A stretch of 63,838 nucleotides of DNA, counting the filler, from an uncultured Methanosarcinales archaeon (GTDB lineage Archaea; Nanobdellota; Nanobdellia; Woesearchaeales; UBA12501), in assembly GCA_964397315.1 (NCBI GenBank). It is 3 parts of 3 records of this genome, joined end to end, with 100 filler letters (N's around TTAATTAATTAA, not from the genome) between each part and the next. Parts side by side here need not be neighbours in the genome. Positions count along the whole stretch, not along the records: positions 27,302 to 58,857 come from CAYNHV010000018.1; 2 more parts are not named here. One strand, given 5' to 3'. How positions within the stretch are numbered: position 1 is the stretch's first letter; each line of letters starts with the position of its first letter. Made by a program: the position numbers and the translations under genes. The notes under the pieces were generated by a model. That model saw nothing but the letters and a program-made list of their open reading frames with translations. It ran no database searches and was not told where the DNA came from. This document shows, one piece after another, positions 37,790 through 45,573 of the stretch.

Positions 37790-38128
37790 TCATGTCTTTG
37801 CAGAGAGCATCCTGACATCTATATTGCCTTCAACATAAGGGACCTTGTTTGCCTCCCTCCTTTTGAGCTTTACAATGCTGAATCCCTCAAGATACTTCAG
37901 GTCGCGGTGCACTGCCTCAAATCTCCTTCCCAGCTTTCTTGCAAGATCGCTTATGCTCTCCACCCTGTTATGGCTGATATACTCAAGAAGCCTTATCCTC
38001 TCGGGAGTGAAGACTCTGCAGAATATGTCATGGGTCATGAAAATCACATGCCTGCGCCTGTCCCTGGCCATCTTTTCCTGAGTGACATTGACCTTGTTTA
38101 TATCCTTAACAATCTCAATATTAACCAT
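37790..38128 (-). CDS. HTH antitoxin-like protein (HVO_A0114-like)
   Basis: FTPERIRLLEYI...SISDLARKLGR.FEAVHRDLKYLE; overlaps the upstream toxin-like gene. Confidence 0.8.
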   Translation of the reverse strand: MVNIEIVKDINKVNVTQEKMARDRRRHVIFMTHDIFCRVFTPERIRLLEYISHNRVESISDLARKLGRRFEAVHRDLKYLEGFSIVKLKRREANKVPYVEGNIDVRMLSAKT

Positions 38129-38390
38129 TCTTGATTTCCTCCATTATCCTGTTTCCTATGTTTATGACAGTTGTTTCAGCTTCCTTGAAAGTTAATTCCT
38201 TGAACTCAACCCTTTTGTCATCATGCCTGTGGATATGCGAGCCCTGCTTTCCTTTATGAGGGTAATTGTCTATTCTTGCCATGCATTCCCATCTGCCTGT
38301 GTAAAAGATGTATGATACAGACCATTTAAGTGCGTCGAGCTTGAATACAAGCCTGGTGTCCTGGTCAAGTATCTTTTCCCAGGTTCTCAT
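38121..38390 (-). CDS. DUF6516/TumE-like toxin
   Basis: RIDNYPH...HIH motif, paired with the HTH gene; ATG at 38390 after a TATA box. Confidence 0.65.
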   Translation of the reverse strand: MRTWEKILDQDTRLVFKLDALKWSVSYIFYTGRWECMARIDNYPHKGKQGSHIHRHDDKRVEFKELTFKEAETTVINIGNRIMEEIKNG

Positions 38391-38481
38391 TCTATAACGC
38401 CAAAGGTTATAGATATAATCTTTTAGGTTATACCTATTATATAAATATTTTGTTTTTTGTTGTTTAAATACACCACGCCGC

Positions 38482-38527
38482 AATGTCCAGTGGCTTGTGA
38501 GAAGTTTCCGGATAGGGCGGAGAAGCA
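38482..38527 (-). repeat. Intergenic repeat family C, copy 1 (attC-like)
   Basis: CTCCGCCCTATCCGGAAACTTCTCACAAGCCACTGGACATT, similar to 40463-40510. Confidence 0.6.
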
Positions 38528-38857
38528 TCAGTGATATTTTCTTTTGTATTCTGAATACAACTCAAACAATTCATTTTCCATCTGTTTATTAAGTTCTTTT
38601 GCATTCTTTATATCTCTCTTAGCATTGGGCAATGTTTTAACCCAGAAAGGCACGAGGATTATAATAAAAATTACCCCTGCTATCACAGAATAGTTATTAA
38701 AGCCTGTAATGCTGTAAATAAGCGAGTATACAGCAACCATAAATGCAGTTATAGATAAAAGTGTTGTGAGTAAGAATTTAGAGTTATTAATCAGAAACTC
38801 TCTGCTAGACTGGTCAAACTGTATCATAAATTGCCTATCTTGTTTTGTTCTTTTCAT
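38528..38857 (-). CDS. Small two-TM membrane protein
   Basis: 109-aa AT-rich ORF with two hydrophobic segments. Confidence 0.7.
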   Translation of the reverse strand: MKRTKQDRQFMIQFDQSSREFLINNSKFLLTTLLSITAFMVAVYSLIYSITGFNNYSVIAGVIFIIILVPFWVKTLPNAKRDIKNAKELNKQMENELFELYSEYKRKYH

Positions 38858-38864
38858 TCTTTTT

Positions 38865-39000
38865 AGGCAAGGAAACTTTGGGCTTTTAGCCCAAAGAGGA
38901 ATTGCCTTGCTTTCCCCCGTTAGTTTTTTCTACCATTTTTGATTACATCTGCAACCAAGATGCAACGGGAAACTGAAACCTTTAGGTTTCGGAGGAGGCC
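38865..39000. mobile_element. IS200/IS605-end-like hairpin remnants (PATE-like)
   Basis: AGGCAA..CTTTGGGCT TTT AGCCCAAAG AGGAATTGCCT and CTGAAACC TTTA GGTTTCGG AGGAGG; shares the GGAATTGC and CCTTTAGG core with family A. Confidence 0.55.
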
Positions 39001-39013
39001 ATATTTATTATAA

Positions 39014-39460
39014 TCAAGACTGGTTCTGTATCCTTTTAAGGCGCTTTTTTAACAATTCAATACCTTTGTCATTCTTGAAGTCCTCACATCTTTTTATTTG
39101 GTTATAAGGCATAAATCTTTGATTTGATTTCCTCTTTATCCTTCCTTTTTCGTGGAATATCTTAGATGGAATAATCCAAAATTCATTATTCTCTATGTTA
39201 TGACAACAAATAAAAAAGTCTTTTTTCGGCTTAAACTCTTTTAATATAAACTGCTCTTGCCTATTTTTTATTGTTCTGCTTTTTACTTGAATCTCAATAT
39301 ATGTTCCTTGTTTATTTTTTACGATTAGGTCAATCCCTTCAGAATCAACGACAGGGATATAAACATCAAAATCATTCTTTAAGAGTTCAGAGATTATATA
39401 ATATTCAACACTCTTCCCTTTTTTCATTCCACTTTCGGTAGAGGCTTGTGCTTCTTTCAC
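39014..39460 (-). CDS. PD-(D/E)XK-family nuclease-like protein
   Basis: E...ELLK..FDVYIPVVDSEGIDLIV...YIEIQVKS. Confidence 0.75.
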   Translation of the reverse strand: MKEAQASTESGMKKGKSVEYYIISELLKNDFDVYIPVVDSEGIDLIVKNKQGTYIEIQVKSRTIKNRQEQFILKEFKPKKDFFICCHNIENNEFWIIPSKIFHEKGRIKRKSNQRFMPYNQIKRCEDFKNDKGIELLKKRLKRIQNQS

Positions 39461-39564
39461 TTTAAGCTCTCCTCAACCACCTTAATCTCATCTTTTGTAA
39501 GGCCGTAAATCTTATAGGTCTCCTGATCTGTCTGGTCATCAAGCTCTTTGATTTGTTCCTGCAT
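39457..39564 (-). CDS. 35-aa mini-ORF equal to a copy of the Type IIG RM C-terminal tail (RM-tail copy 3)
   Basis: Manual translation MQEQIKELDDQTDQETYKIYGLTKDEIKVVEESLK*. The ATG is 1 nt after the Bro-N stop and the stop overlaps the GTG of 39014..39460. Confidence 0.7.
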   Translation of the reverse strand: MQEQIKELDDQTDQETYKIYGLTKDEIKVVEESLK

Positions 39565-39565
39565 T

Positions 39566-40414
39566 TTATTTCTTACGCAGCTGTTTTTTCTTTTTTTCTG
39601 GATCAAAAAGATAGTTCTCTTTTGAAGCTATCCGTCTGCCCAACTCTGTTTCTGTCTCTTTTCTCGCATTCCCCGCCACTCTTCCGCCCTTTTTGGCCGC
39701 ATCTTCAACCTCTTTATAGCCTTGCGCATCATCTTTTCTTGTTATCTCTGTGGAGACTCTTTCCCCCAGCATGTTGAATATAAGTTCAAGGTCATTCATA
39801 TGGTCCCTGAGATTCTCCCTTTTTAGTCCCTTGAGTCTCTTATACTCTCCTGTTGTCATCCCAAAAGTGGCTTTGCTTATCTCATCTGTAAGAATTGCAT
39901 AATCCCTCTCTTCCCCGACTCCTCTCATGCCCCATTCGTCTGTAAGCTCCTGCCTTATTGCTATGCCCCTCACTCTCTTCTCAATCCAGTCATCAGAATA
40001 CCCCTTTGCCTTGTATATTTCTTTCATGCGCTTCTGGGCCAGCTCAGGATCCTCTATCTCCCGCACCCTCTCATAACCCACTTTTGCAAGCCACTGCTTA
40101 AAGGGTTCTGCTTTTGGCGAGGGAATTGACTGAACAATCCTGAACATGTTCCGAGTATTGGCGCAGTTTGTAAGCCTTAATTTGCCGTCTTCTGCAGGCA
40201 GTTTCAACTGGTGACAATCTGTCACCACTTCGCTTCCCTCCTCTCTGAGCCTTTGGCTAAGCTTGTTCCAGTACTTTCTTGCCTTGTGGGAATCTGCCTG
40301 TTCAGTCAAGACAGCGACAACATCCACAACAGAGAAGAACCACTCATCATTATGCCATACTCTTCTTATCTTCCTGTCCTGGAACACAACCAGGGAATTG
40401 CCCTTGTTTTCCAT
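39566..40414 (-). CDS. Bro-N domain protein (phage antirepressor-like)
   Basis: IRRVWHNDEWFFSVVDVV, YWNKL, IPSPKAEPFKQWLA, NLRDHMNDLELIF. Confidence 0.9.
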   Translation of the reverse strand: MENKGNSLVVFQDRKIRRVWHNDEWFFSVVDVVAVLTEQADSHKARKYWNKLSQRLREEGSEVVTDCHQLKLPAEDGKLRLTNCANTRNMFRIVQSIPSPKAEPFKQWLAKVGYERVREIEDPELAQKRMKEIYKAKGYSDDWIEKRVRGIAIRQELTDEWGMRGVGEERDYAILTDEISKATFGMTTGEYKRLKGLKRENLRDHMNDLELIFNMLGERVSTEITRKDDAQGYKEVEDAAKKGGRVAGNARKETETELGRRIASKENYLFDPEKKKKQLRKK

Positions 40415-40462
40415 TTTATATCTTGTCCATTATTTATGTCTTATTTATGCATTTCGCCCCTT

Positions 40463-40510
40463 AATGTCCAGTGTCCGGTGATAACTTCCGGAAAGAGCGG
40501 AAAATACTGA
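40463..40510 (-). repeat. Intergenic repeat family C, copy 2 (attC-like)
   Basis: TTCCGCTCTTTCCGGAAGTTATCACCGGACACTGGACATT. Confidence 0.6.
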
Positions 40511-40549
40511 TTCGACTCTTCTTTCTGTTTCTGTCATTTCAGGCTCTCC

Positions 40550-41053
40550 TTATATATATTTGTTTTTGTTGAAATCATCTGGAACCCTATACTTTTTTTC
40601 AGTGATTTTTGCTGATGTTATCCTGCTGGTTCTGAATTTTCTTACAGCTTTTCTTAAATGGCAGTATGCCAAAACATATTTCCTAGATTTATAGTAAACA
40701 TCAATTAATCTTGGTATAGACTCAGCGGATTCCATATTAAAATAGCCTATTTCCAGCGTATTTCTGCCATCAAAGGCCTTCTCAACTTTCCTATAAACCG
40801 GCTCGCTGATCTCATTATTGAATGTGTCATATCTTCTCCTTAATAGGGCTTTTTTTGATTCTTTGGCGTCTTCTGCAGGCAGAAGAGACTCAATTTTTCT
40901 TAAAATCTGCTTCAGCCCCTTTTTGCCGGCAATTGACTCCTCGCAATAATCTTTTTCCCAGCTTTCAATAGGATTTACTATTAGATTTTCATCATACGCC
41001 TTCAAAATAGAATGTATTTTGGTTAGTTCTTGTATGGTAAAAGGCTTATTCAA
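40550..41053 (-). CDS. WYL-domain protein
   Basis: LEIGY...R.IDVY...YVLAYCHLRKAVRKFRTSRI. Confidence 0.8.
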   Translation of the reverse strand: MNKPFTIQELTKIHSILKAYDENLIVNPIESWEKDYCEESIAGKKGLKQILRKIESLLPAEDAKESKKALLRRRYDTFNNEISEPVYRKVEKAFDGRNTLEIGYFNMESAESIPRLIDVYYKSRKYVLAYCHLRKAVRKFRTSRITSAKITEKKYRVPDDFNKNKYI

Positions 41054-41083
41054 TTTTCTCTCCCCTCTTCTTTCCCATATTCA

Positions 41084-42022
41084 TCACTTGGGGCTCCAAC
41101 CACTGTAATACTGCAGAGGCTTTTCTTTCCTTTTCTCAAACCCTATTTTCTTCCTAGGCTTTTTCCTTTCTTCATCCATCAGTTTTTTTAATCTTCTTTG
41201 CAGTGGATTAATTGGCTTTTCATTTGTCTCTTTCATCCTGGATTTTCCTTGATGATGCTCATCAAAGCACTCATCACATAGCCCTGTATGCCAATCTTTA
41301 TTGTGGGATGATATCCTTGCATTGCATTTCCTGCAATTGTGATTCATGTTTTCATCATGCTTTTTATGAAACGTTTTCAGCTTCTCTTTTGTCTCATGCG
41401 GATCAAGAGTTTCTGTGAAGGAGTCTTCTGACCATAAATCGCTGACTCTCGCTGGCCCCCCTGTTTCTTTGATGTCCTTTTCAAGGCAGCATTCCTTGTA
41501 TTTTTTTCCAGAGCCGCAATGACAGGGCTCATTTCTGCCAATTTTTCTCGGTTTCCTCTCCTGAAACTTTATGTTACTGCCTATTTCAGACACTTTTCTG
41601 GGCTGATGATAATCAATACTATTCTCATCAAGAACGCGGGCAAAATTTATGACACAATCCTTTTTTCCCGAGAAAAATATTATATTCCCCATTATTTCAG
41701 CAAAATAAACTTCGCACAAGAACCCATAAGTAGTTGCAAGCCAATCATCAGAATCATCATAAAAGATTCCCTTTTTATCAGCTAAAAGACCGAGATTATT
41801 TTTAATCTCGCTTAAATGCATGTCCTTCATCTCCTGGATAACCCCATCATATAACCTGACCACTTTCAGCTCTCTGTCTTTATTGAATTGCACAAAAGAG
41901 CTGATCAGTTTTTTGCTATCCACTTTTTTTCCCAGTAAAAAATCATGTTTTGTTTCAAGGTAATAATCAAAATTGTGCTGTTTTTCAAGCTCTTCACGAC
42001 GTTTCCCGATTAAACTGCTCAT
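41084..42022 (-). CDS. SEC-C motif protein with an additional Zn finger
   Basis: GRNEPCHCGSGKKYKECC and CRKC...CDEC. Confidence 0.8.
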   Translation of the reverse strand: MSSLIGKRREELEKQHNFDYYLETKHDFLLGKKVDSKKLISSFVQFNKDRELKVVRLYDGVIQEMKDMHLSEIKNNLGLLADKKGIFYDDSDDWLATTYGFLCEVYFAEIMGNIIFFSGKKDCVINFARVLDENSIDYHQPRKVSEIGSNIKFQERKPRKIGRNEPCHCGSGKKYKECCLEKDIKETGGPARVSDLWSEDSFTETLDPHETKEKLKTFHKKHDENMNHNCRKCNARISSHNKDWHTGLCDECFDEHHQGKSRMKETNEKPINPLQRRLKKLMDEERKKPRKKIGFEKRKEKPLQYYSGWSPK

Positions 42023-42119
42023 TTTAAACTCCCCTCAACAATCCTGATCTCGTCCTTGGTGAGGCCGTAAATCTTATAGGCCTCCTGATCTGTCCGGTCA
42101 TCAAGCTCTTTGATTTGTT
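42019..42119 (-). repeat. Type IIG RM 3'-tail repeat, copy 2
   Basis: Encodes QIKELDDRTDQEAYKIYGLTKDEIRIVEGSLK*, nearly identical to the end of 42766..45573. Confidence 0.9.
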
Positions 42120-42378
42120 TACACCAACAGCCGAAACAAAAGAGCCTGTTTTTAGCTGCTCTGCCATAGCATAATTTCCTTATGCATTTTGACGACCACA
42201 AAATTGTATTATCTTCACCTTTCTGAATAATCAGCTTAATGCTCCCTTTTTTGGTTTTTCCCTTTTTGATTAGCTTCCCTTTAACTCTGATGCGGCTTTT
42301 AAATTCTTTTACCTTTCTTTCTTTTCTGGCTAATTCTGAAAGCGTGTTAATCAGTGTCCTGTCTATCTGATTTTTCAT
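42019..42378 (-). pseudogene. Apparently frameshifted basic protein gene fused to RM-tail copy 2
   Basis: After ...IQKGED, alternative frames read YNFVVVKMHKE and YAMAEQLKTGSFVSAVGV, then the sequence switches abruptly to the RM tail. Confidence 0.5.
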
Positions 42379-42769
42379 CTTGCATCTTATCCAAATGCTT
42401 CATAGTATAAATCATTTGCTGGATGCCTATATAAGCCCCTGCTCCAAACATCTCTTCGGCCAAATCCCTCTTTGACATGGTTTTAAGCTCTTCCTTTCGT
42501 TCTTTCCAAACCTCAGGAAAGGCATCTTCAACCAAAGCATTTGTCATGTTTTCAGGAATAAGCTCGTCCATCTTGCCCATGGGAATATCTACATGGACTT
42601 CTCCCAAGTCTTCCCCTTTTGCCAATTCTCCTGCATTTTGGAAGCATTCATAGCACATATGCTTTTTTGACCTTTCAAGCATATCTTCAGGGCATTCAAT
42701 CTCCTTGCCGCAAAAAGAGCAGCTCACTTTTACTGACTTCTTGTTTTCAATATCTTTAAACTCATTCAT
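42347..42769 (-). CDS. Zn-ribbon hypothetical protein
   Basis: CSFCG...C...CYEC; ATGA overlap with the RM stop. Confidence 0.75.
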   Translation of the reverse strand: MNEFKDIENKKSVKVSCSFCGKEIECPEDMLERSKKHMCYECFQNAGELAKGEDLGEVHVDIPMGKMDELIPENMTNALVEDAFPEVWKERKEELKTMSKRDLAEEMFGAGAYIGIQQMIYTMKHLDKMQDEKSDRQDTD

Positions 42770-45573
42770 TTTAAACTCCCCTCAACAATCCTGATCTCAT
42801 CTTTTGTCAGGCCATACAGCTTATAGACTTCCTGGTCTATCTGGTCATCAAGCTCTTCGATTTCTCTCTCAAGACGGGCTTTTGAGTCGGTTTGCTTGTC
42901 ATGAACTTTCCTTAACTCTTTAGATAAATCAATACGCCTTTCCACTAAATTATTAAGTTTTGTTTTAAAGGATTGAGGCATATTTTTTTTAATAGGAATA
43001 TTCTTAACATAAGAAGCTATATAACGATAAAAACCTCCCCTAATCATTGTAGAAATTTGTTTAAAGTAATATTCTATAACCTTTGAGTTGAGTATACCCA
43101 CAAGATATTTTTCCTTAAAAGGCACAATGTAAGCTGTATTACCACAAAAATGCTTTTCCACATCATAAGAAAACCTATTCTCAGAAGCAATATCCGGAAA
43201 GATTATTTTATCACACTCAAATTCTGAGTAATATTTACATCCTCTCAGTTCATACCAAGGATGTTTTTTGTGTTTTACTTCCCAAACCTTATCTAACTTA
43301 CTTTTAAACTTCATAAGATGTTCTCTTACTGCAGGATATTTGGTGATGTTGATCCCAGTGTAAGCGAATATCAAATAATTATCATCAAACTCAACGCTAT
43401 ACCTCTTGATATTCTTTCCAAAAATAAACTTTTTGATTATCTCTTCTGATTTCTTATCTTTTTTTATTAAACTGTTTTTTGTTTTTTCATCTATAATAAA
43501 AGCTTCATTACATCCGGTAGTAATGCCTCTGAAAAGTTTTCCTTTCACAAAAGAATATAAATCCACTGTATTTTTCTCAATCTTAGTTTTAAGTTTATTG
43601 TCCGCTTTTTCTTTAAAAACCCACCCTTCAGAACTAATCTCGCTCTGTTTGATAATATTCTGGTTAGATTGCACTTCGTCTTGCAAATTCTTAAAATTAA
43701 GAGATTTAACTTTTGAAAAAATAATTTTATTTGACTTTCTCGTCTTAGCGTTACCTGTTTTCTTTAAGATAATTATACATGGATAAGTGGTGGCATCTTG
43801 AAAAACAGGGAGTTCTCCAAAGTCAATAAATTGAAGAATTTGAGTATTATCTAGAATAAAGTCTCTTAATTTTCTTCCATATTTAGTTCTTGTAAATTTA
43901 CTTGAAACAATAAAAGCGAAGTAACCTCCTTCTTTAAGTAAGTTTATAGCTCTTTCAAAGAAATAGGTGTATATATCACTAGTACCATCATAAATCTTAT
44001 ACTTTTCAAATCCTTTCTTATACTTATCTAATTGTTCCTGCCTAACATAAGGCGGATTTCCTATAACCACATCAAAGCCTCCTTCGGCCATTATGTCTTT
44101 GAACTCTTTCTCCCAATTGAAGGTCTTGTCTCCTGCAACCTCAGAATCGTCAATAAGGCTGTTGCCCACTTTAAGGTTCTCCTGTAGTGTGGGCAGCCTG
44201 TGCTTCTTCTCAGCAGCCTTCAGGAGAAGGTTCAGCTGCGCTATCTCCACTGCCTTGGGGTCCAGATCCACCCCAAATATGTTGTTCTTAAGTATCTCAA
44301 GCTTTCTGCCGTAAGTCACAGACTCTCCTGTAAAGTCCAGCTTTGTCTGGTCAATATCACCATTCTTTTTCTTGTCCAGCGCCACAAGATAATCAAAAGC
44401 CTTCATCAAGAAGCTTCCGGAACCGCAGGCAGGATCAAGAACCTTTATCTTTGAAAGGTCAGCCTTCTTGTCCTTGGCCAGCTCGCCAATGGTATTCTTC
44501 ACAATATAATCCACAACATAGGTGGGCGTGTAATAGATTCCCTGCTCTTTCCTGTGGGCCTTGCCGGAAGTAAGCTTTGCCCTTTTAGGGGTCTTCTTGA
44601 GTATGTGGCCCAGGTACTGCTCATACATATTTCCCAGGACATCAGCGTCTATAAGGCTGAAATCATACCTCACAGTCCCGTCCTGAGTCTGAAACAACCC
44701 CTTTATGATTCTTTCAAGAACATCATCACTTATTACAAGCTGGTCACAAAGGTGCTCCTCAAAGAGCTTGCTGTTATACGTTTCGTTGAATCTAGCGAAT
44801 GATTCCCCCAGCTTCTTGTAAATCCTCTTGTGGGTGTCCTCCCTCACCAGAGGGATCAGGCTTTGAGGCTCTAATTCCCTGGACTCACAGGTCCTTATGA
44901 ATATCAGCCTGTCAAGTATCCTCTGAACAGACTCGTCAAGCTCATCCTCAGAATCAAACTTGCCGGCATTATGGCTCATCAGGTCCTTGGAAAGAGACTC
45001 CCTGAACATCGTGAGGTCGCTCAAGAGCTGCTTGTCCACAGGAATCTTCTTCAGCTTCTTCAATCTCTTTTCTGCCTCATTATGGATCAGGCCTTTCTCA
45101 AAGCTCTCCTTGGAAAGCAGCCATAAGTCATCAAACCTGTCCAAATACTGCGTGTAGTTGAGAAAGTACAGGCCGCTCTGCACGTAATTAGTGGTCTTCA
45201 CCTCAGCATTAAAAACCTTTATCCCCTCAAAATCACATAACACAGCCCAGATAACATTCTTATGCCAAGCATAATCAATAGCCTGCTTCGCCCATCTCTC
45301 CTCATCTAGATCCACAGAAAGCTTTTTGGCCTCAAGAAAGAACTTAGGGATATCACCCATCTTAAAAGCATAATCAACCCTTCCCTTGGAAGCCTTGTCC
45401 TCAGGATGAACATCCTTCTCAAAATCCCATCCAAGAGCCTCAAACAAGGGCCTGATAAACCATTGTTTCGTCTTCTCCTCATTAAAGCCCTTTATATCAG
45501 ACTGAGAAAGAGATTCATATTTTTTAACCAGTTCAGCAACTCTCTTTTTAGCTTCTTCCTTGGAAACCACCAT
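42766..45573 (-). CDS. Type IIG restriction-modification enzyme (HsdR_N-like nuclease + N6-adenine MTase, Eco57I/TaqI-like + TRD)
   Basis: EEKTK..FI.PLFEALGWD, RVDY..FFLEAK; GIYYTP, LDPACGSGSFL, GFDVVIGNPPY; TaqI_C-like KIIFPDI, ILNSK. Confidence 0.95.
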   Translation of the reverse strand: MVVSKEEAKKRVAELVKKYESLSQSDIKGFNEEKTKQWFIRPLFEALGWDFEKDVHPEDKASKGRVDYAFKMGDIPKFFLEAKKLSVDLDEERWAKQAIDYAWHKNVIWAVLCDFEGIKVFNAEVKTTNYVQSGLYFLNYTQYLDRFDDLWLLSKESFEKGLIHNEAEKRLKKLKKIPVDKQLLSDLTMFRESLSKDLMSHNAGKFDSEDELDESVQRILDRLIFIRTCESRELEPQSLIPLVREDTHKRIYKKLGESFARFNETYNSKLFEEHLCDQLVISDDVLERIIKGLFQTQDGTVRYDFSLIDADVLGNMYEQYLGHILKKTPKRAKLTSGKAHRKEQGIYYTPTYVVDYIVKNTIGELAKDKKADLSKIKVLDPACGSGSFLMKAFDYLVALDKKKNGDIDQTKLDFTGESVTYGRKLEILKNNIFGVDLDPKAVEIAQLNLLLKAAEKKHRLPTLQENLKVGNSLIDDSEVAGDKTFNWEKEFKDIMAEGGFDVVIGNPPYVRQEQLDKYKKGFEKYKIYDGTSDIYTYFFERAINLLKEGGYFAFIVSSKFTRTKYGRKLRDFILDNTQILQFIDFGELPVFQDATTYPCIIILKKTGNAKTRKSNKIIFSKVKSLNFKNLQDEVQSNQNIIKQSEISSEGWVFKEKADNKLKTKIEKNTVDLYSFVKGKLFRGITTGCNEAFIIDEKTKNSLIKKDKKSEEIIKKFIFGKNIKRYSVEFDDNYLIFAYTGINITKYPAVREHLMKFKSKLDKVWEVKHKKHPWYELRGCKYYSEFECDKIIFPDIASENRFSYDVEKHFCGNTAYIVPFKEKYLVGILNSKVIEYYFKQISTMIRGGFYRYIASYVKNIPIKKNMPQSFKTKLNNLVERRIDLSKELRKVHDKQTDSKARLEREIEELDDQIDQEVYKLYGLTKDEIRIVEGSLK

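Follow-up and report, generated by a model that had tools for sequence, protein, structure and literature searches.

The conserved tail of a Type IIG restriction–modification gene as a probable homologous-recombination hotspot for accessory genes in a DPANN-type archaeon

Behind a Type IIG restriction–modification (RM) gene of an uncultured DPANN-type archaeon (assembly GCA_964397315.1), the last ~100 nucleotides (nt) of the gene recur twice, and unrelated genes lie between the copies. Within the 63,838-nt stretch of DNA that we analysed, called the window throughout, this gene end, or tail, is probably a hotspot of homologous recombination at which tail-bearing foreign DNA integrates and leaves a tail copy on its far side; we hold this reading with somewhat more confidence than doubt. 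In kind, the phenomenon is a recombination hotspot of the 'insertion with long target duplication' type and not a dedicated cassette machine. The case is built on the copies and their mosaic pattern, on divergence of a coding type, on cargo genes that start exactly at a tail stop, on a broken cargo gene, and on recurrence of the arrangement in other genomes.

Results

Three same-strand tail copies had been proposed in an earlier sequence-only reading of the window, and they proved real. Repeat search and alignment recovered one repeat family of three direct 101-nt copies, two of which are 87% and 81% identical to the reference copy, all on the minus strand like the RM gene and the cargo genes throughout. 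Copy 1 (42766-42866) is the end of the functional RM gene, and copies 2 (42019-42119) and 3 (39457-39557) are orphans. Similarity sets in ~101 nt ahead of the stop codon and extends no further than this codon. When the whole 63.8-kb window was searched by blastn and tblastn, the copies matched one another at E values of 1e-12 to 1e-24, and no fourth copy was found (next best E at least 0.08).

The differences between the copies fall in blocks. Across 102 aligned nt, the 15 positions at which copies 1 and 2 differ are restricted to the first 69 (p=0.003), and the last 33 nt are identical; copies 3 and 2 differ at 14 positions, 11 of them in the last 43 nt (p=0.006). The simplest reading of these sequences is that the three copies are reciprocal chimeras of two parental tail types, ~79% identical, which we term resident and donor. 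Copy 1 would then combine resident-type 5′ two thirds with a donor-type last 33 nt, copy 2 would be of donor type throughout, with its frame intact, and copy 3 would join a donor-type 5′ part of ~59 nt to a resident-type 3′ part; where copies 1 and 3 are both of resident type, their sequences coincide. Such a pattern is expected if tail-bearing foreign DNA integrates into a resident tail by homologous recombination. According to the sequence-only reading, copies 2 and 3 have substitutions in common that the gene copy lacks; this is correct for the 5′ half and wrong for the last 33 nt, where copy 2 equals the gene copy and differs from copy 3.

The substitutions are of a coding type, with ratios of nonsynonymous to synonymous change (pN/pS) between the copies of 0.24, 0.34 and 0.20 and a synonymous excess in each comparison (Fisher p 0.004, 0.009 and 0.002). 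This bias argues that the tail types diverged while translated as the ends of functional RM genes, rather than by decay after a local duplication. Both orphans retain an open frame and a stop codon, and an ATG directly after the stop of the Bro-N gene that precedes copy 3 opens an open reading frame (ORF) of 35 codons across that copy.

Across the RM family, the tail comprises the last ~33 codons and forms the C-terminal helix, with the motif IDxxVYxLYGLTxEEIxIVE standing at the C-terminus of nearly all 120 listed homologues. Genome contigs were searched with an alignment of 20 RM sequences, and 80 loci were examined of at least 571 confirmed. Among these loci, 34 pairs resemble each other in nucleotide sequence over only the last 60-240 nt of the gene, and no such match runs beyond +4 past the stop. 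Several pairs (among them L047/L066, L059/L078 and L058/L073) have in common the 5′ ~1650 nt and the tail (the last 150 nt in L047/L066), with a different target recognition domain (TRD) between, which identifies the tail as the 3′ homology anchor of TRD exchange. The proposal that the tail serves as a recombination anchor is thus supported by the reciprocal mosaics, by the 34 pairs with isolated tail homology and by TRDs swapped between methylase part and tail. A candidate C-terminal fusion of an IS200-like domain to the tail in three homologues (P0035, P0096, P0102) was dropped, as these proteins end in a normal tail.

Orphan tails also occur elsewhere. A tail profile made from the 120 listed homologues, the window's RM protein included, was run on all six frames of the 80 loci and recovered the RM gene's own tail in 63 of them. 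Of the 58 loci in which 300 nt or more of downstream sequence was available, 6 had extra tails, seven in total. Every one of these orphans follows the RM gene and shares its strand (p=6e-5), and none was found upstream or on the opposite strand in the loci scanned. We graded four loci as strong (L020, L055, L060 and L066) and two as weak (L022 and L072). Extra tails with coupled genes, a prediction of the sequence-only reading, are therefore present in other genomes, where they usually bound whole genes; their hosts range from Patescibacteria and Bacteroidales to Nitrospirae, in addition to the DPANN-type archaeon of the window.

The richest of these loci, L055, has two orphans (96.7% identical over 121 nt; 89.6% over 77 nt), the former, measured against the gene tail, reaching 8 nt past the stop; its first insert encodes a DUF2971 protein and its second is a four-gene block with a HipA-like kinase and a Zn-ribbon protein. 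A single orphan, cut by the contig end, accompanies an AbiU2 HEPN protein at L020, and one of ~180 nt (72-79% identity) accompanies a HicB/HicA pair at L060, followed by an IS200-like gene. L066 holds one frameshifted orphan and no cargo, and L022 and L072 hold weaker, decayed orphans with unknown proteins as cargo. Two local details are recorded here: at L060 (8238-9449) the HicB/HicA pair lies between RM gene and orphan, and the start of the IS200-like (Y1_Tnp) gene overlaps the orphan's end; at L066 (7773-8517) a stretch of 750 nt holds four copies of an ~80-nt element, which starts 12 nt ahead of the RM stop, with the duplicated tail and 100 nt of downstream sequence lying among them.

No longer RM fragment was found behind RM genes in the 80 loci or the window by tblastn with 20 RM proteins; apart from this, the only matches were to a second full gene in L053 and, in L007 and L063, to frameshifted parts of the main gene. 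The second gene of L053 (4302-7445) is a different Type IIG gene standing in tandem after the first. As to a donor, the window's tails had no nucleotide match to the tails of the 80 loci at E 1e-6, and those loci include no close relative, the best match to the window's RM protein being 53-54% identical at the protein level. The 40-aa (amino acid) tail of L072 gave only two weak single matches by tblastn against a plasmid collection.

Between the 101-nt repeats of the window lie inserts of 646 and 2461 nt. In gene direction, the RM gene with copy 1 is followed by a Zn-ribbon gene, a 119-aa ORF ending in copy 2, and genes for SEC-C, WYL and Bro-N proteins; after Bro-N come copy 3, a PDDEXK_5 nuclease, a small membrane ORF and a TumE-like/HVO_A0114 pair. 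A Pfam scan confirmed that the genes downstream of the tails are mutually unrelated, as had been supposed.

Stop/start overlaps had been reported behind all three tails, and two of them stand. The Zn-ribbon gene starts on the RM stop (ATGA at 42769) and the SEC-C gene on the stop of copy 2 (ATGA at 42022); both joints are at native starts, because the N-terminus of the Zn-ribbon protein agrees with the N-termini of its family and homologues of the SEC-C protein align from residue 1-2. Judged by homology, then, two unrelated genes join a tail exactly at native start codons. The GTGA at 39460 exists, yet as a coupling it is doubtful, because the ORF that it opens matches PDDEXK_5 of Pfam only from residue 13 onwards and has an ATG 11 codons downstream; this third coupling may be an artefact of ORF extension.

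A purine-rich, Shine–Dalgarno (SD)-like motif precedes the stop in all three copies, as the sequence-only reading had it. A loose SD-like pattern also occurs in the last 33 nt of 30 of 61 RM genes, a count made without a shuffle or other control that supports no claim. The next same-strand ORF starts at most 15 nt from the RM stop in 21 of 58 homologous loci, and the ATGA overlap is found likewise in the DPANN relatives L001, L003, L017 and L026. With two cargo genes starting on a tail stop and an ORF this close in 21 of 58 loci, a portable ribosome-binding and start context remains plausible. At L050 (9995-13855) the RM frame reads through the tail for ~275 more residues, so that the downstream gene is translationally fused; the extension holds a domain with what we take, from its HPFxxxNGR motif, to be a Fic-like character.

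The first insert, cargo A, is captured DNA rather than a tidy cassette, as its truncated gene and microhomology junction indicate. Its first gene encodes the full-length Zn-ribbon protein (140 aa; 42347..42769, minus strand), for which Woese-, Nano- and Pacearchaeota have 97 homologues with identities of up to 84%. Its second (42114..42378, minus strand) is, by homologues and frame analysis, a broken copy from a conserved ~115-aa DPANN family, of which 62 homologues are known to us besides the window's own ORF (63 proteins listed). The first 56 aa of the 119-aa ORF are 80-88% identical to most members of this family, which belong to Nanoarchaeota and relatives; the reading then passes through the frames 42378-42211, 42208-42176 and 42176-42114, that is, through two −1 frameshifts, and ends ~27 codons short of the family's end, exactly at the start of copy 2. 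On this alignment the 119-aa ORF does not represent an independent gene. The frameshifts, at 42176 and 42208-42211, are one-base contractions of A runs and reflect either real decay or homopolymer sequencing errors.

At the junction of the truncated gene and copy 2 (42113..42119, minus strand), 6-7 nt can be assigned to both partners. The ~115-aa family conserves N-K-F at this point, and the parent gene presumably used the same codons there; read in this way, the junction is of an illegitimate, microhomology type. The Zn-ribbon and ~115-aa families share contigs, in one case with adjacent locus tags, and neither has a Pfam family. Genes of the two families (proteins P0122-P0280) form a conserved adjacent pair in Woese-, Nano- and Pacearchaeota, most copies being on short contigs.

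Cargo B, the second insert, comprises three minus-strand genes, for a SEC-C-motif protein of 312 aa with a native N-terminus (41084..42022; Pfam SEC-C 3e-9), a WYL-domain protein of 167 aa (40550..41053; Pfam WYL 5e-10) and a Bro-N domain protein of 282 aa (39566..40414; Pfam Bro-N 3e-11), whose stop lies 9 nt before copy 3. Behind copy 3, the PD-(D/E)XK nuclease gene (PDDEXK_5, 148 aa; 39014..39460, minus strand; Pfam 3e-9), with its likely true start at an ATG near 39427, is probably the RM gene's original neighbour. Homologues of the Bro-N protein, 50-60% identical, adjoin RM homologues at two bacterial loci, L047 (733-1521 and 4986-5570) and L054 (2574-3359), and the family appears to be a recurrent RM neighbour. 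A 21-nt stretch is shared at 20 of 21 positions by the Bro-N gene (40181-40201) and the WYL gene (40862-40882), encoding nearly the same seven residues; by a rough estimate, this match is unlikely to arise by chance.

The gene that ends in copy 1 (42766..45573, minus strand) encodes 935 aa and is classed as a Type IIG RM gene from its domains, as Eco57I (1e-49), N6_Mtase (3e-25) and TaqI_C (5e-23, residues 715-861) matches are united in one polypeptide, ahead of the C-terminal helical tail. TaqI_C is its specificity domain, or TRD, and the catalytic NPPY motif of the N6-adenine methyltransferase domain is invariant across the 20-sequence alignment. For an N-terminal endonuclease domain in the same chain, the only candidates are matches below the curated cut-off at residues 30-130, to HSDR_N and HSDR_N_2 (E 0.004-0.008); PF04313 is present in many of the homologues. 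The gene has 524 homologues, and the solved structures nearest to its product are CamA, BseCI and BrxX methyltransferases.

The neighbourhood is that of an archaeal chromosome, with ribosomal proteins S7 and L11, Spt5, FtsZ, a trp operon, PolX and an ATP-dependent ligase. From ~38100 to 44100 the GC content is 0.28-0.40, against 0.48-0.50 outside. Within the RM gene (42900-45573) it is 0.45-0.47 in the 5′ methylase half but only 0.28-0.31 in the TRD part, a break which suggests that the TRD part was replaced by foreign DNA. At the edge of the low-GC island (37790-38528), a TumE-like ORF with a sub-threshold Pfam match overlaps an HVO_A0114-family ORF by 8 nt; by their families, the two may form a toxin–antitoxin pair.

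Pfam analysis of 60 ORFs of the 64-kb window found no integrase, transposase, recombinase or reverse transcriptase family, which bears out the earlier remark that no integrase is visible, and no tRNA gene was found in the window. Nor is there an attC-like hairpin, the folds of all three copies on both strands being no better than those of shuffled sequences (z −1.64 to +0.14). The idea of a dedicated cassette system finds no support, given the absence of recombinase and structured site, the broken, microhomology-joined cargo, orphan lengths that range from ~50 to ~180 nt and the decay of some orphans; the swapping or deletion of cassettes had been inferred, and no such event was observed.

Three established kinds of system were also compared with the locus. 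For an integron array, same-oriented units parted by a repeat are present, but IntI and a folding attC are not, and one unit holds three genes and another a truncated one. A phase-variable RM shufflon is contradicted by repeats that are direct instead of inverted, by the lack of any RM fragment besides the tails and by the lack of a recombinase. A diversity-generating retroelement, with the tail as its variable repeat, was rejected, as there is no reverse transcriptase family, and substitutions of every type occur, most of them at third codon positions, with no restriction to adenines.

Discussion

We infer the crossover, its donor and the translational coupling from the patterns above, and they would fit together as follows. 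The tail is an isolated stretch of conserved nucleotide sequence within a gene family that constantly exchanges its specificity domains. A cargo-plus-tail unit would first have been made by an illegitimate event, as the microhomology junction at copy 2 indicates, and would thereafter be movable by homology. Foreign DNA with a related tail would recombine into the resident tail, by a single crossover of a circle or by 'ends-in' repair, and this exchange would restore an intact RM frame, set the foreign genes right behind its stop and push a second tail to the far end. Here, a block with donor-type tails, consisting of Zn-ribbon gene, truncated neighbour, tail, SEC-C, WYL and Bro-N genes, may have recombined into the resident copy once or twice; a single import of an array already made up of two units and two successive imports both fit. 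The purine-rich last codons and the stop/start overlap would lend a ribosome-binding context to the first gene behind each tail. A dedicated enzyme would be unnecessary, and the orphan tails would be footprints, reusable as homology for gain, loss and transfer.

Several points weigh against this account. Neither an empty site nor a donor array was found, and the crossover is deduced from three short sequences; gene conversion between copies could yield similar mosaics; and the microhomology junction of copy 2 with the truncated gene means at least one illegitimate, non-homologous step. Donor-type tails have unusual residues at two conserved hydrophobic positions. Among the other loci, the 5′ limits of the orphans vary from about −50 to about −180; L066 duplicates the tail together with 100 nt of downstream sequence, without a cargo gene; and at L055 the gene after the first orphan is a 24-codon remnant, so that coupling is not general. 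The sample, moreover, is only 80 of at least 571 confirmed related loci.

Unlikely, though to be taken seriously, is a history in which the inserts entered by illegitimate recombination or template switching at microhomologies and duplicated the resident tail in place, the mosaic arising later through TRD replacement and gene conversion. The junction that truncates a gene at copy 2 is of the kind this history calls for, the GC break inside the RM gene suggests a TRD swap, and copy 2 of L055, at 96.7% over 121 nt, runs 8 nt past the stop. PMC2853133 also records, around RM genes, long and variable target duplications that lack mobility genes, some of them overlapping gene 3′ ends. Duplication in place nevertheless predicts copies that are identical at first and then drift neutrally, whereas the observed differences are synonymous-biased and in reciprocal blocks; and both inner cargo genes are joined at native starts, which is rare for random joints.

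An integron-like system, in which a recombinase encoded elsewhere uses the tail as a site for promoterless cassettes, is improbable. It would suit the compact, same-oriented cargo between similar-sized repeats and the occurrence of the pattern in several phyla, but the 64-kb window holds no recombinase, the repeats have no conserved secondary structure and variable limits, a cargo gene is cut short, L022, L066 and L072 have decaying orphans, and bacterial and archaeal hosts would all need one enzyme family. We think it more improbable still that the orphans are the last remains of complete tandem RM genes, mostly deleted. Tandem Type IIG genes do exist (L053), and coding-type divergence places the tails in once-functional genes; yet none of the 58 loci has a fragment longer than ~180 nt, copy 2 directly borders a truncated gene of unrelated kind and copy 3 the stop of a complete one, and the reciprocal chimeras are left unexplained.

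There is very little to recommend the idea, compatible with the other explanations, that orphan tails are expressed as small peptides that mimic and modulate the RM C-terminal helix: frame and stop are kept in both orphans, copy 3 has its own ATG after the preceding stop and pN/pS is low, but a history inside functional genes accounts for the low pN/pS, orphans elsewhere are frameshifted or decayed, and conserved positions hold non-consensus residues. An assembly artefact, whereby a metagenome assembler joined strain variants through the shared tail, is the least credible of all. In its favour, copies 1 and 2 share an exact 33-nt stretch plus ATGA, and the sequence probably comes from a metagenome-assembled genome. 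Against it, identity between the copies is no more than 81-87%, non-RM sequence stands ahead of each orphan, which a simple mis-join does not create, and independent assemblies show the same arrangement, one of them a 4.2-Mb record (L055).

Homologous integration at the tail, the reading we prefer, invites comparison with several known systems. Integron arrays are built by an IntI integrase acting on attI and folded attC sites, and hold cassettes in one orientation behind one expressed position, with repeats of ~60-140 nt between them. Cargo in the window is likewise same-oriented behind one position and parted by a repeat of similar size; in contrast, IntI, attC and attI are absent, the repeat belongs to the coding sequence of the gene next to it, and one of the cargo genes is truncated. 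Some integrative elements target the 3′ end of a gene (of a tRNA gene or of some protein genes) and carry a replacement copy. As with these, the target gene here stays intact, its duplicated 3′ end flanks the insert and the junction repeats are hybrid, but there is no integrase, and the inserts, of 0.65 and 2.5 kb, lack element functions. Phase-variable RM loci of the tvr type have inverted repeats, spare TRDs and a recombinase, whereas the window has direct repeats, no TRD copy and no recombinase that we could find. The closest parallel comes from an article of 2010, which cites an earlier paper by Nobusato (2000).

In that article (Furuta, Abe and Kobayashi 2010, PMC2853133), insertion with long target duplication at RM loci is, in the available text, described for bacteria only, no archaeal case having survived the screen; there, RM genes form the insert and the mechanism is left open. 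Shared with those cases are direct repeats far longer than transposon duplications and of variable length, the absence of mobility genes, a link to RM genes and, in some instances, overlap with a gene's 3′ end. Set against that work's definition (direct repeats above 30 bp, insert below 20 kb, no mobility genes), the window has 101-nt repeats and inserts of 646 and 2461 nt; the definition also has R and M genes within the inserted DNA, and here the inserts are Zn-ribbon, SEC-C, WYL and Bro-N genes. A related genome with the empty site and a single copy of the repeat is a further element of that definition. The roles are thus reversed relative to the available account (PMC2853133), in that the RM gene is the target, other genes are inserted and the events are stacked in an array. 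A further departure is that the repeats are reciprocal chimeras of two alleles, which argues for homologous rather than staggered-cut insertion.

Three other literatures touch the finding. Allelic TRD diversity is described in Type IIG genes (PMC2853133), and TRD exchange in Type I S and Type IIG genes uses the conserved flanks of a variable TRD as homology (PMC2853133, PMC3077401), of which the tail would be the 3′ flank; such exchange stays within the gene and leaves no duplicate, whereas here the same anchor captured whole genes outside the frame. PrrC is embedded in the Type IC EcoprrI locus (PMC12707154), and non-RM genes of defence type similarly sit in or behind the RM operon in related loci, where the cargo includes AbiU2 HEPN, HicAB, HipA-like kinase and DUF2971 proteins; unlike PrrC, cargo A is not recognisably a defence gene. 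As at the pneumococcal tvr locus (PMC6265443), partial copies of an RM specificity end adjoin the expressed gene. Our literature search, which did not reach subscription journals or supplements, found no description of tail arrays. What is new against what is known is the RM gene as target, the stacking of events and the hybrid repeats.

By what route defence islands gain genes in the absence of obvious mobility enzymes is an open question, and the window, with six similar loci, offers a concrete and testable route. Along the proposed route, the best-conserved short stretch of an exchangeable gene family would be the landing pad, and orphan tails would record each event. Long target duplication, so far bacterial, would extend to a DPANN-type archaeal chromosome, and the reciprocal hybrid repeats provide a sequence-level clue to a previously unexplained insertion mechanism. 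If the route is general, counts of orphan tails would date and order the acquisitions of defence islands, and tails would predict genes co-expressed with the RM enzyme. More tentatively, the Type IIG tail might be a recombinase-free analogue of an integron site, a movable segment of homology that brings its own ribosome-binding and start context, at which accessory blocks, each ending in a tail copy, are gained, lost by deletion between tails, released as circles and moved between the RM genes of different lineages; if this were true, the RM genes of bacteria and DPANN archaea would seed and grow defence islands.

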